A stretch of DNA of 64,000 nt from Escherichia phage vB_EcoM_Lutter. This document shows, piece after piece, positions 1,828 to 6,115 of the stretch (its first letter is position 1; every line of letters starts with the position of its first letter). The notes under the pieces were generated by a model that saw only the letters and a list, made by a program, of their open reading frames with translations, did not search any database and was not told the origin of the DNA. The DNA lies in sequence record NC_054924.1. One strand, given 5' to 3'. The translations under genes and the position numbers were made by a program.

Positions 1828-3068
<1,241 letters not shown>

Positions 3069-3087
<19 letters not shown>

Positions 3088-3557
3088 TCAGTGATAAAGC
3101 TATTTAAATTTTGAGCATATTTCTTTTCATCATAAATCTTTTGCTGTCTGCGTAAACGCCATGGCATTTCAATGAACGTGTACCATATCCCAGATAATAT
3201 TGCTGCTGTAAAAATATTAACAAGTATGGTTAAAATAATCCAATCTCCCGTTCTGTCTACTGGACTTTCTCCAAAGAAGCAAAATACAAATGATGTCACA
3301 GGAAAACTAATAATATACCACAGAATCATAATCTTATCTGTGAACCAATCAGTGTTCGTTAATTTAGCGCGACCATTATGAATACACACGAATTTATCAT
3401 CTGTTGCAGTAGATGGCTTAACTGGTTGATATCCCATTCTAAACTCCCTAATCAGCAAATTTTTCATATCTTCGGAACAGCCATTCCAGTCAACTCTATC
3501 AACTGAAATGCCATCATCCCCATCATCTAAATCATACCAGCGAGTTTTTAAAATCAT
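3069..3557 (-). CDS. Small membrane protein, paralog 1 of a tandem family
   Basis: 162 aa; two hydrophobic helices then a basic stretch and C-terminal motif FITECRKLK; ATGA overlap with the upstream gene. Confidence 0.6.
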
Positions 3558-3928
3558 TTGATTTTCCTACAATCATTCACGAATTCTTTCATTGATTCAT
3601 TTTCAATATAAGACATGTAGTTATTATATTCTTTTAATTGTATTTTGTAATCCTTTTTTCTTTGCCAATTTATTTTAAAATTATCATAATGAAAATATAA
3701 AATAATACCAAAGAATGAAAATAATGAAATCGCTATAGTATAATGAAGTTCACTCCAAACTTCTATTATATCTACTATACCGCTGACATTACTGCGGATG
3801 TTTAAAATAATACAGTCAATCATTAATCCAATAAGACTACCCGCAAGAGCTGCAGCCAACGCCACAGCAAAAATTAAAAATGACTCAGAAAACGAATATT
3901 TGACTTTATTTAGTTTTGGCTTTTGCAT
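3554..3928 (-). CDS. Small membrane protein, paralog 2
   Basis: 124 aa; hydrophobic helices; C-terminal FVNDCRKIK. Confidence 0.6.
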   Translation of the reverse strand: MQKPKLNKVKYSFSESFLIFAVALAAALAGSLIGLMIDCIILNIRSNVSGIVDIIEVWSELHYTIAISLFSFFGIILYFHYDNFKINWQRKKDYKIQLKEYNNYMSYIENESMKEFVNDCRKIK

Positions 3929-4302
3929 CGTGATTCCTTAACAAATTTCATAATTTCATCAAATTCATACGCGGCAAGTTTAAGCTGATGTTCCTTTTTA
4001 ATCTTTTTACACTGTGCTTTCCAATCACGTACACGTTTACGATAATGTCTTCCTTGATACCAATATCCTATCCAATTTACAGGTACTAATAAAAGTGGAA
4101 CTATTAATGGAAGAATTAGCATTAACACAAGTATTTCGCCAGAATCAATATCAGTCATAACATCTAAAACACCTCCAATAATCAATAGAATTACAAATGA
4201 TATGAGTATAACAGGACCTATTAACACATCAGTAGAAATTATCTGGCGCTTTAATTCATACTTTAAGGGTTTACTTGGAAGATACATTGATGGCTTTGAC
4301 AT
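3910..4302 (-). CDS. Small membrane protein, paralog 3
   Basis: Track start 4323 is TTG; ATG at 4302 (MSKPSMYL...) has an AAGGAA SD; C-terminal FVKESRCK. Confidence 0.55.
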   Translation of the reverse strand: MSKPSMYLPSKPLKYELKRQIISTDVLIGPVILISFVILLIIGGVLDVMTDIDSGEILVLMLILPLIVPLLLVPVNWIGYWYQGRHYRKRVRDWKAQCKKIKKEHQLKLAAYEFDEIMKFVKESRCKSQN

Positions 4303-4879
4303 ATTCTCTACATTCCTTAACAAATTTTTCTAATAATAAATCGCTTTCAAAATTAGGATTTTCCACGAATTTATCAAAAAGATCATCAACGATAGTTAAG
4401 ATATTCTTTTTATTAAGAATACGCTTATTTTCATATTTTGTTTCAGAGTCAACTATAAGAGTAAAGAAATATTTCTTTCCCTGAAATTTTACCGTAGTAT
4501 CAATATAGAACAAATTTGACTTTTGTAAATTACGTTTAAACCATGCGTCACTTAAACTATAAACGCCAAGATAATCATAATCGTCGTTTAAATAACAAAC
4601 TGTCCATTCAGGAGAAATGAAATCAGTAAATTCAACATCAAAATCACATGTCAATGAATGAATCGATTCAATACTTTTAATAAGTATTCCAGGACGTATT
4701 AAAGACTTTTTACCTCTGGAAAATCTTCCAGAAAGACTTTCATTAGTTTCATATGAAGAACCCCAATAATAATTACGCCCTTCTGCCATACGTTTAAGAG
4801 CATTTAGTAATTGATCTGGAACATCAACCTGTCTTTGGAACTCTTCAAACATTGAATTGAAATCACTTTGCATTTTCAT
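4271..4879 (-). CDS. Hypothetical protein sharing the C-terminal FVKECR motif
   Basis: 202 aa, not hydrophobic; C-terminus EKFVKECREYVKAINVSSK. Confidence 0.6.
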   Translation of the reverse strand: MKMQSDFNSMFEEFQRQVDVPDQLLNALKRMAEGRNYYWGSSYETNESLSGRFSRGKKSLIRPGILIKSIESIHSLTCDFDVEFTDFISPEWTVCYLNDDYDYLGVYSLSDAWFKRNLQKSNLFYIDTTVKFQGKKYFFTLIVDSETKYENKRILNKKNILTIVDDLFDKFVENPNFESDLLLEKFVKECREYVKAINVSSK

Positions 4880-4900
4880 TCCTACTTACTCCAAGTAATA

Positions 4901-4914
4901 GGGGCCGAAGCCCC
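4901..4914 (-). terminator. Stem-loop with UUCG tetraloop after 4921..5514
   Basis: ggggccgaagcccc; minus-strand RNA is GGGGC-UUCG-GCCCC. Confidence 0.5.
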
Positions 4915-4920
4915 TTATCA

Positions 4921-5514
4921 TTATTTCAGAGAATTAATATATTCCTGAACATCGGCAGAGGTAGTTTCAACCCCAGAAATATTACCATTAAAGGTTTCAA
5001 CTCGAGCAAGGGTATCTTCAATATCAACCTTAGTCAGTGCTGCAATTTCAACTACATCATCTGCAGTACTAATTCCAAGGGCATTTGCTGCGCGAGTTTC
5101 ACGGATATATTCCAATTTAACTGCAAGTTCTTGGCGAGCATCATCCAATTCAACTACTTTCTTAGCGATTTCAATTCGCATTTCAGCATAACCATCAGCT
5201 TTAGTAGTCAACTGCTCAGCTGTTCGACGATATAGTAAACCGAGTTTAGCATGCATTGTTACATCTTGACCTTCGGAAAGAAGCTTGCGAATTTCACGCT
5301 CTTTTGATTCGGCTTGCTTATTCTTTTCGACAATAAGTTCACGAATACGCTTTTCTTCATTAATAGATTTAACGGAAGCAGTTTTTAGATCTTTAATCTT
5401 ATCAAGTAGTTTTGCTGCCGCAGCAGTATACTGTTCTTCAACAGATAGATTTTTAGCCATAGCAGAACCAAGTTTAGTGCGAATAAACTCAACAATTTTC
5501 TTCAGTGTGTTCAT
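4921..5514 (-). CDS. Coiled-coil protein with PspA/IM30 (phage-shock protein A)-like sequence pattern
   Basis: 197 aa; [42 protein letters not shown] and [27 protein letters not shown] resemble the [35 protein letters not shown] and TLVDDTLARMKKEI...TRARQQAL segments of E. coli PspA by eye. Confidence 0.5.
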
Positions 5515-5570: not shown

Positions 5571-5906
5571 TTATTCTTCGTCTAGCTCGTCGATAAAGGC
5601 GTCGATGGCCTCGACAACAGCATCATTGATAGCCAATAAAATAAAATCATCGTCAGTACCTTTAGAAGATTCTAAAGCATTGATATATGCTTGATTGGCG
5701 AGTTCCCAAGCCTTTTTAAAATAAGGAGCTTCATCATCGGGGCCAACGAAACGTACGCCTTCAAAGATACGGTTAGCATAATCCAATACCCACTGTACAG
5801 GCATGTTTTGAGAACGTTCGTTAAACTCTTTAAATTCCTTAGATTCAAAAAGCTCTTCAGGATAATCATTTCTATTACAAAAAGCTTTACTAAAGTTACG
5901 TTTCAT
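5571..5906 (-). CDS. Hypothetical protein
   Basis: 111 aa ORF with ATG start; acidic C-terminus. Confidence 0.55.
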   Translation of the reverse strand: MKRNFSKAFCNRNDYPEELFESKEFKEFNERSQNMPVQWVLDYANRIFEGVRFVGPDDEAPYFKKAWELANQAYINALESSKGTDDDFILLAINDAVVEAIDAFIDELDEE

Positions 5907-5950
5907 AATGTTTTCCTTGTGATGATAAGTCTATAGTAACGCCTTCATAC
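5907..5950 (-). promoter_or_regulatory. Early promoter upstream of 5571..5906
   Basis: Minus strand GTTTACA, 17 nt, TACTAT. Confidence 0.4.
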
Positions 5951-6115
5951 TTAGATGTAAACTATTTCAACATCACCTTTTGCTGCTTTATAACCTTCAG
6001 CCCAAGATACAACCGAGTTTTTATCTGAAGATTCAAATTCTGGCATTGGGCTTTCGCCAATGTTCACGCAGTATGTTTCTTCATTTTCGTCGAACCAAAT
6101 AATTAAAGTAGTCAT
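5951..6115 (-). CDS. Small hypothetical protein (54 aa), absent from the ORF track
   Basis: ATG at 6115 preceded by GGAGAAATAA; MTTLIIWFDENEETYCVNIGESPMPEFESSDKNSVVSWAEGYKAAKGDVEIVYI. Confidence 0.4.
   Translation of the reverse strand: MTTLIIWFDENEETYCVNIGESPMPEFESSDKNSVVSWAEGYKAAKGDVEIVYI

Follow-up and report, generated by a model that had tools for sequence, protein, structure and literature searches.

Translationally coupled overlapping genes, such as the ATGA-type junctions of T4 and of bacterial operons, carry the Shine-Dalgarno sequence (SD) of the downstream gene inside the upstream open reading frame (ORF). The acidic C-terminal tip of Escherichia coli SSB illustrates a different property of protein ends, that of a shared docking tail. 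Here we describe four consecutive minus-strand genes, the orthologues of T4 e.5, e.4, e.3 and e.2, in a 64,000-nucleotide (nt) stretch of the genome of Escherichia phage vB_EcoM_Lutter (NC_054924.1; hereafter the window). Each of these genes ends in a related C-terminal peptide and overlaps the start of the next. The window belongs to Tequatrovirus, and a 3-kb query around the locus matches 505 phage records at 90-99% identity. In our overall reading, which we consider probable, the tail is selected as a peptide, accommodates the SD of the next gene in its free positions, marks junctions at which genes recombine, and would act in docking.

The closest described counterparts are T4 e.2-e.5 themselves (NP_049738-NP_049741; PHROGs 2203, 2330, 2604 and 2607), orthologues with the same order, strand, overlaps and tails, set in the gene order e, nudE, e.2, e.3, e.4, e.5, e.6 that T4 and the window have in common. 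The two differ at e.2, which is broken in the T4 reference (102 amino acids [aa]) and intact in the window (162 aa). Databases annotate the T4 proteins only as hypothetical or predicted membrane proteins, and neither the annotations nor the literature searched were found to describe the tail motif that they share.

As in coupled overlapping genes, the locus has 4-nt ATGA and longer overlaps with putative SDs 5-10 nt upstream, inside the preceding gene. The usual case, however, lacks a conserved peptide, whereas here the SD moves among the free positions of a motif. By analogy with the SSB tip, a short terminal peptide is far better conserved than the body that carries it, as would be compatible with one common binding site; unlike that tip, the present motif appears amphipathic and basic and occurs on several proteins of one phage rather than on one hub.

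A further relative is found in PeSLs, mobile regulatory cassettes of the hyperplastic regions of T4-type phages (Arbiol et al. 2010, PMC2839356; Comeau et al. 2014, PMC4122927), whose crossovers can fall in SD sequences (PMC2839356). In both settings short border repeats that include the SD of small accessory ORFs are crossover points at which ORFs are deleted or shuffled, and loss or gain of this type between flanking repeats is visible here as hybrid tails in loci that lack e.2 or e.4. PeSLs, however, consist of an intergenic promoter and stem-loop, whereas the repeat described here is coding (tail, SD and start codon) and its peptide is itself under selection. No PeSL-type intergenic early promoter and stem-loop lies within e.5-nudE, where there is no intergenic space. 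A peptide-selected tail that is shared across non-homologous neighbours and also has a role in recombination junctions appears to be undescribed. The locus itself is a variant of known themes, namely embedded-SD overlaps, paralogue arrays in hyperplastic regions and boundary-mediated module shuffling, and what the finding adds is a detail, apparently undescribed, of how phages pack their genomes, not a system of a new kind.

Overlapping genes with a common tail

The array runs on the minus strand from e.5 (4271-4879; 202 aa; T4 orthologue NP_049741; phrog_2607) through e.4 (3910-4302; 130 aa; phrog_2604) and e.3 (3554-3928; 124 aa; phrog_2330) to e.2 (3069-3557; 162 aa; phrog_2203), with no intergenic space from e.5 to nudE. 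The latter (2632-3072, minus strand), encoding a Nudix hydrolase, receives the last junction and is without the motif. For e.4 we adopted the ATG at 4302, as in the T4 annotation, and not the TTG at 4323 offered by the ORF finder. With these starts, e.5, e.4, e.3 and e.2 overlap the next start by 32, 19, 4 and 4 nt, respectively, and e.2 shares ATGA overlaps with both e.3 and nudE. ORFs, translations and junctions thus confirm what a preliminary description of this DNA had claimed, that four minus-strand genes have related tails and each overlaps the next start.

The e.5 protein ends ...LEKFVKECREYVKAINVSSK, a tail that includes FVKECREY, and e.4 ends ...MKFVKESRCKSQN, which includes FVKESRCK; the corresponding tails are ...KEFVNDCRKIK in e.3 and FITECRKLK in e.2. 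Their common motif is hydrophobic-x-x-F-[I/V]-x-x-[C or hydrophobic]-R, or in short form L-x-x-F-I/V-x-x-C-R. The bodies that precede it are of more than one kind. Hydropathy analysis places two transmembrane (TM) segments in each of e.2, e.3 and e.4 and none in e.5, so the earlier label of small membrane proteins suits the first three and fails for e.5, a soluble protein. Both e.3 and e.4 form a two-TM hairpin, which in e.4 (segments 31-49 and 57-75) is followed by a cytoplasmic helical tail, while e.2 consists of an acidic N-terminal domain, two TM segments and a tail of ~30 residues.

The tail pattern is more than chance would produce. A search of all 184 window ORFs that reach 40 aa or more (25,761 residues) for the strict pattern F[IV]..C[RK] returned three occurrences, every one of them in a tail, those of e.2, e.3 and e.5. 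Residue shuffles yielded a mean of 0.07 tail matches and never reached three in 2000 trials.

Because the genes overlap, the SD of each downstream gene must fall in tail codons. At the e.5/e.4 junction, the codons for L-E-K-F-V-K-E-C-R (L183-R191; 4307-4333, minus strand) include an AAGGAA in K-E (4313-4318) that lies 10 nt before the e.4 ATG (4300-4302). The K-F-V-K-E-S-R codons of e.4 (3928-3948, minus) likewise contain AAGGAA in K-E (3934-3939), here 5 nt before the e.3 ATG (3926-3928), which spans the R-C codons of e.4 (cgATGc). At the remaining two junctions the SD is instead AGGAAA and occupies R-K: that of e.3 (3563-3568, within the F-V-N-D-C-R-K codons at 3563-3583, minus) stands 5 nt before the e.2 ATG (3555-3557), and that of e.2 (3078-3083, within F-I-T-E-C-R-K at 3078-3098, minus) stands 5 nt before the nudE ATG (3070-3072), each at an ATGA overlap. 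The SD therefore takes up two different codon pairs of the motif, K-E or R-K. The preliminary description was right that the tail codons double as a ribosome-binding site, but the site has no single place within them and can move between lineages.

A 16-mer, AAATTTGTTAAGGAAT, is part of the first two junctions. The window contains two exact copies of it and no more (3933-3948 and 4312-4327, minus strand), which upholds the exact recurrence first reported while slightly correcting its ranges, and it is the sole exact repeat of at least 16 nt within 2900-5000. Two or more matches at up to two mismatches were obtained in 5 of 100 shuffles.

Several features of the block concern its annotation and expression. 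Relative to the window gene, T4 reference e.2 has a 1-nt deletion and a 1-nt insertion (-1 and +1) 77 nt apart, and because of these two indels the record annotates a protein of 102 aa and leaves the stretch after it unannotated: in NC_000866, e.2 spans 3153-3461 of the extracted locus (L001) and is followed by a 162-nt 'gap' before nudE. Beyond the indels the T4 sequence preserves the original frame together with the FITECRKLK tail and nudE junction, and the T4 reference e.2 is either a lab-strain pseudogene or an old sequencing error. The start of nudE is also annotated in two ways. At 3070-3087 in the window (minus), the E-C codons of e.2 (GAA TGC) create an ATG in the nudE frame, which the T4 RefSeq record uses (MQEIKMKTL..., 151 aa); other annotations use the ATG of the ATGA overlap (MKTL..., 146 aa), and only this second start has an SD (AGGAAA, 5 nt upstream).

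A scan for promoters and terminators gave nothing decisive inside the array, and -1 frameshifting at AAATTTG was ruled out by the wrong codon phase. The only strong hairpin found, a perfect GGGGC-UUCG-GCCCC tetraloop structure (GGGGCTTCGGCCCC; 4901-4914, minus), lies outside the overlapping block, in the 41-nt spacer between e.6 and e.5. A similar G+C-rich hairpin occupies the matching place in Mosigvirus and Yersinia phage P8 loci (L006-L008), and such an element may stabilise or attenuate the transcript at the 5' border of the block.

Peptide conservation and Shine-Dalgarno placement across Tevenvirinae

The preliminary description had warned that the apparent protein conservation in part reflects constraint on the nucleotides. 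To weigh peptide against nucleotide, we used 21 IMG/VR loci anchored on the conserved neighbour e.6, plus annotated records, covering Mosigvirus, Gaprivervirus (VR25), Dhakavirus-like phages (JS98-like, CLBP2), Enterobacter CIP9-like phages, Klebsiella phages Marfa and KPV15, and Pectobacterium phage PM2. In every lineage e.5 carries the motif, as FVKECREY, FIMECREY, FIAECREY, FVDQCRAN, FIKHCREA, FVESCRKS or FIKYCRKR. When e.5 proteins of eight lineages, 16-47% identical to that of the window, are aligned, no column is invariant other than M1, a single N and the motif residues F, C and R. The same motif ends members of the two-TM e.3/e.4 superfamily (one to three tandem copies, plus RB69ORF133c elsewhere), the e.2 homologues of Gaprivervirus (VR25) and Dhakavirus (31-37% identity; FIEECRK directly before the stop) and unrelated soluble proteins of ~95-102 aa. 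When IMG/VR was scanned for codons of F-I-K-E-C-R-K, C-terminal matches in real ORFs were confined to T-even relatives; other matches were due to chance or to an unrelated 174-aa family with an internal heptapeptide.

The pattern of overlap and embedded SD also holds in 42 distinct tails from other phages, and in these the conserved residues are spelled freely. Phe is encoded by TTT in 31 and TTC in 10, Cys by TGT in 18 and TGC in 15, and Arg by all six of its codons (AGA 12, AGG 10, CGT 12, CGC 4, CGA 2, CGG 1). Where the SD falls depends on the distance from the F codon to the next ATG: it lies in the x-x codons when this is 17-22 nt (with one exception, a weak-SD case at +23), in the C-R-x codons at 25-32 nt, and wholly past the motif at 40 nt or more. 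Its spellings are AAG GAA, AAG GAG or GAG GAA in x-x and AGG AAA, AGA GGx or CGA GGA in R-x, with post-motif codons used otherwise. A single gene can switch between these solutions, as illustrated by the end of e.2, which reads ACT GAA TGC AGG AAA TTA AAA TGA in the window and GAG GAA TGC CGT AAA TGA in VR25.

Taken at face value, these embedded sites could mean that the similarity of the peptides is largely a by-product, with tail codons obliged to spell the SD and initiation region of the next gene. The window junctions fit such an account, each having AAGGAA or AGGAAA in K-E or R-K codons 5-10 nt before a start. Codon choice offers further support. Lysine at x2 is AAG only when it serves as SD: it is AAG in six of eight lineage/family cases with the ATG within 23 nt of F and AAA in all seven with the ATG at 25 nt or more, a difference (Fisher p = 0.007) that is indicative only, the lineages being not fully independent. 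Similarly, AGG, a rare codon in T4, is found in 10 of the 42 tails, mostly where R-K forms the SD. The SD nevertheless accounts for at most two codons, which differ between junctions, and F, I/V, C and R lie outside it and vary synonymously. Moreover, the motif persists with the SD 27-44 nt beyond the F codon, as in e.5 of Gaprivervirus/Dhakavirus, CIP9-like phages and PM2, or with a fully separate SD, as for the 102-aa protein of KPV15 (FIAKCRAK directly before the stop), where gene e starts 29 nt later with its own SD, TAGGAGGT. As the main cause of the similarity, nucleotide constraint is thus largely refuted, and we consider it improbable; the warning is apt for x-x and for the residue that follows R, the variable positions, and not for F, I/V, C and R.

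Because F, C and R are conserved, their synonymous sites are free and the motif persists where the SD is elsewhere, the peptide is under selection of its own. The comparisons show a tail held by selection on the protein in at least four families across Tevenvirinae, with the SD threaded through its degenerate positions by choice of residue and codon.

What follows the motif behaves differently. The post-motif residues of e.5 and e.4 are encoded by DNA that also specifies the start of the next proteins, whose N-termini are conserved (M-S-K-P-x-L-Y-L-P-S-K-P and M-Q-K-P), and because they vary between lineages they look like incidental read-through over the start of the following gene.

The coincidence of a conserved C-terminal motif with overlapping downstream starts is also, circumstantially, what one would expect of a cis-acting nascent peptide that regulates or arrests the ribosome, pausing it to couple translation of the next gene. 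Such a role would be hard to reconcile with the geometry: between 1 and 15 residues separate the motif from the stop, the ATG can be as near to F as +17 nt or as far as +56 nt, and one motif-bearing gene has no overlapping downstream gene. Given this variable spacing to both stop and start, we regard an arrest peptide as very unlikely.

Paralogy and cassette exchange at the junctions

Since single-sequence BLASTP and Smith-Waterman comparisons were too weak to decide whether the four proteins are paralogues, profile comparison was needed, and we built profiles from family alignments that drew on T4, Kelasse, Mosigvirus, Gaprivervirus/Dhakavirus and other loci. Aligned with hhalign, e.4 and e.3 match over 114 columns (1-125 versus 1-121) with a probability of 88.9% and an E value of 2.4e-6. 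With the tail removed the score is still 25-28, whereas reversed profiles score 12-13 and column-shuffled ones no more than 14.8. Judged by these profiles, e.3 and e.4 are full-length paralogues. The e.2 profile matches the e.3/e.4 superfamily (93% probability, E value 3e-7) over its last 30 columns only, leaving the TM regions unaligned; e.2 carries an extra N-terminal domain but shares the architecture of two TM segments and a tail. For e.5, similarity to the other three is confined to 10-11 residues, LxxF[IV]xECRx, and on this evidence it is a different, soluble protein bearing the same short tail. In PHROGs the four fall into separate families of unknown function, with one weak cross-match of e.3 to phrog_2604.

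The proposal of a tandem array of paralogues accordingly stands for e.3 and e.4 over their full length, in part for e.2 (the last ~30 residues), and fails for e.5. The opposite expectation, that similarity is limited to the junction region, essentially describes e.5 and e.2 and does not describe e.3/e.4. At the DNA level we found no long repeats in 2900-5000 apart from the 16-mer, and any duplication must therefore be ancient.

The junctions themselves retain more detailed traces. Those of e.5/e.4 and e.4/e.3 have in common the 16-mer as well as the 12 nt with which the downstream gene opens (ATG-yMAAAGCCA, giving M-S/Q-K-P), and because tail repeat and next-gene start are shared together, a unit of junction plus body was probably duplicated, in keeping with the cassette duplication first suggested. 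The e.3/e.2 and e.2/nudE junctions share a different element, TGYAGGAAAWTHAAATGA, while other genera have different sequences at the orthologous junctions. We take this to point to concerted evolution, or to duplication of junctions, in the Tequatrovirus lineage.

Gene content varies at precisely these points. ZN18-type loci and T2 lack e.2, and e.3 is joined to the nudE start through a hybrid tail, FVIDCRK|LK, with the crossover lying in TGCAGGAAA; about 6 of 60 evenly sampled Tequatrovirus records (~10%) have this arrangement. JS98-like loci lack e.4, and their e.5 tail, ...EYAKEVQN|GTA, ends with the e.4 tail and e.3 start. In one Mosigvirus contig an internal deletion in e.3 has spared the tail and junction. 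Tandem copies of the two-TM gene number from one to three, with three in PM2 and one in CIP9-like phages and Marfa, and tblastn, which found e.4 in 647 records, e.3 in 605 and e.2 in 532, agrees with variable content. The comparison of gene number across phages thus bears out the idea that whole cassettes are gained or lost here. The hybrid tails show junction repeats of tail, SD and ATG that evidently acted as crossover points removing whole cassettes in frame, and by inference the same junctions may also add or duplicate cassettes.

Such exchange raises an alternative in which the junction is a recombination linker, its DNA kept for modular shuffling as in PeSL cassettes and the peptide a mere passenger. 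The hybrid tails that mark the exact deletion endpoints in T2/ZN18 (loss of e.2) and in JS98-like loci (loss of e.4) are as this account predicts, as is the sharing within Tequatrovirus of the 16-mer at e.5/e.4-type junctions and of the second element at e.3/e.2-type junctions when orthologues in other genera differ, and crossovers in SD sequences have the PeSL precedent (PMC2839356). Between genera, however, the peptide persists although the DNA that encodes it has diverged; moreover, the repeats are just 9-16 nt long and no promoter or stem-loop element lies between the genes. We therefore think it unlikely that the peptide is a passenger, although this account deserves slightly more weight than nucleotide constraint, and favour a tail selected as peptide whose coding junctions also recombine.

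Other rearrangements were observed in the sampled loci. In Dhakavirus-like contigs L015 (about 5640-6025) and L017 (about 5600-5953), an e.3 variant starts M-Y/H-K-P-S-K-T-D-P-G-Y, an N-terminus closer to that of e.4 (Y-L-P-S-K-P) than to the usual e.3 (M-E-R-P-S-L); it may be a recombinant of the two paralogues. A Yersinia phage contig of the ZN18 type, without e.2, has e.5 split into ORFs of 145 and 92 aa by an apparent frameshift (L009, 5136-5751). Downstream of e.3/e.4 in Mosigvirus, Gaprivervirus, Dhakavirus and CIP9/Marfa-like phages, there is a second tandem array of three to five small soluble genes (3731-4525 in L006, 3984-5005 in L008, 6362-7612 in L014 and 6210-7045 in L022), which is not present in the window. 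Each of its proteins terminates in W-[VI]-S-S-S-x-x-C, a further example of a C-terminal motif conserved where genes adjoin, and in the Mosigvirus and Yersinia phage P8 junctions that we read, the TAA stop is fused to the next SD (TAAGGAA).

A possible role for the tail

With F taken as position 0, the motif has L at -3, I/V at +1 and, ahead of the invariant Arg, C or a hydrophobic residue at +4, a spacing that describes one hydrophobic face of a helix. In an AlphaFold2 (AF2) model of e.3 (predicted local distance difference test [pLDDT] score 77; helices 13-49 and 62-123), TM2 and what follows it form one ~60-residue helix with the motif at its end, the tip of a predicted cytoplasmic stalk. 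Both e.3 and e.4 consist of a two-TM hairpin and a helix of ~45 residues, and the positive-inside rule predicts that both of their termini are cytoplasmic. The AF2 model of e.5, of low confidence (mean pLDDT 57), also places the motif in a helix (180-196). In eight of eight lineages, e.5 is followed by an overlapping two-TM gene.

From the helix-face spacing, the stalk-tip position and this adjacency, we infer that the tail may be a shared cytoplasmic docking or assembly helix, an assignment we make tentatively and hold at somewhat less than an even chance. The tail would form an amphipathic helix tip on the cytoplasmic side, and as a common element it could join soluble e.5 to the membrane-anchored stalks of e.4, e.3 and e.2, or bring all of them to one partner. 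Metal or redox chemistry at the motif Cys is unlikely, as S, I, V, M or A takes its place in the e.4 lineage.

Some observations weigh against the overall interpretation. The same replacements mean that the Cys is not kept throughout the family, and incomplete independence of the lineages tempers the comparison of lysine codons. Homology of e.5 beyond Mosigvirus rests on synteny and a local iterative profile, and an exhaustive HMMER search with the e.5 profile found five representatives, all close relatives. The copy-number events can be read as loss or as gain. Finally, Pfam, NCBIfam, PDB sequence searches and Foldseek gave no function or partner. Pfam and NCBIfam returned no family for the four proteins or e.6 (PF26876, recorded for e.5 homologues, is absent from the Pfam copy searched), PDB sequence searches returned no match for e.5 or e.6, and the Foldseek matches of e.5 in the PDB (E > 0.02, TM-scores < 0.2) were treated as meaningless.

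A bolder proposal, and one we consider doubtful at present, is that F-[IV]-x-x-C-R is an address tag that recruits otherwise unrelated T-even early proteins to one conserved partner; the set would comprise soluble e.5, the two-TM proteins e.2, e.3 and e.4, and the ~100-aa soluble proteins of Klebsiella and Enterobacter phages. The partner could be the adjacent coiled-coil e.6 or a host inner-membrane machine. The e.6 gene (4921-5514, minus strand; 197 aa), a candidate partner of the motif, is always immediately upstream of e.5, and its product looks like a long coiled-coil protein. Across lineages where e.5 falls to 16-20% identity, e.6 retains 60-98%.

Public records attach to these small ORFs such labels as 'sulfurtransferase', 'host specificity protein', 'DNA primase', 'portal vertex protein' and 'major capsid protein'. 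Matches in Pfam, NCBIfam and PHROGs support none of these labels (H4, H73, H82, L008, P0013, P0028, P0031), and functional names given to these ORFs should be treated with caution.

T4 e.2-e.5 have been without an assigned function for decades, and the tail provides a concrete experimental handle on them. The locus is also a clean natural example of how two codes are reconciled in overlapping genes, with the SD migrating among the free codons of a conserved peptide. For the evolution of T4-type phages, it indicates that coding gene junctions, besides intergenic PeSLs, can be breakpoints for in-frame loss and gain of cassettes in hyperplastic regions. If the address-tag proposal were true, the tail would define an unrecognised multi-protein early module whose membership evolves via cassette exchange at the junctions that encode it.

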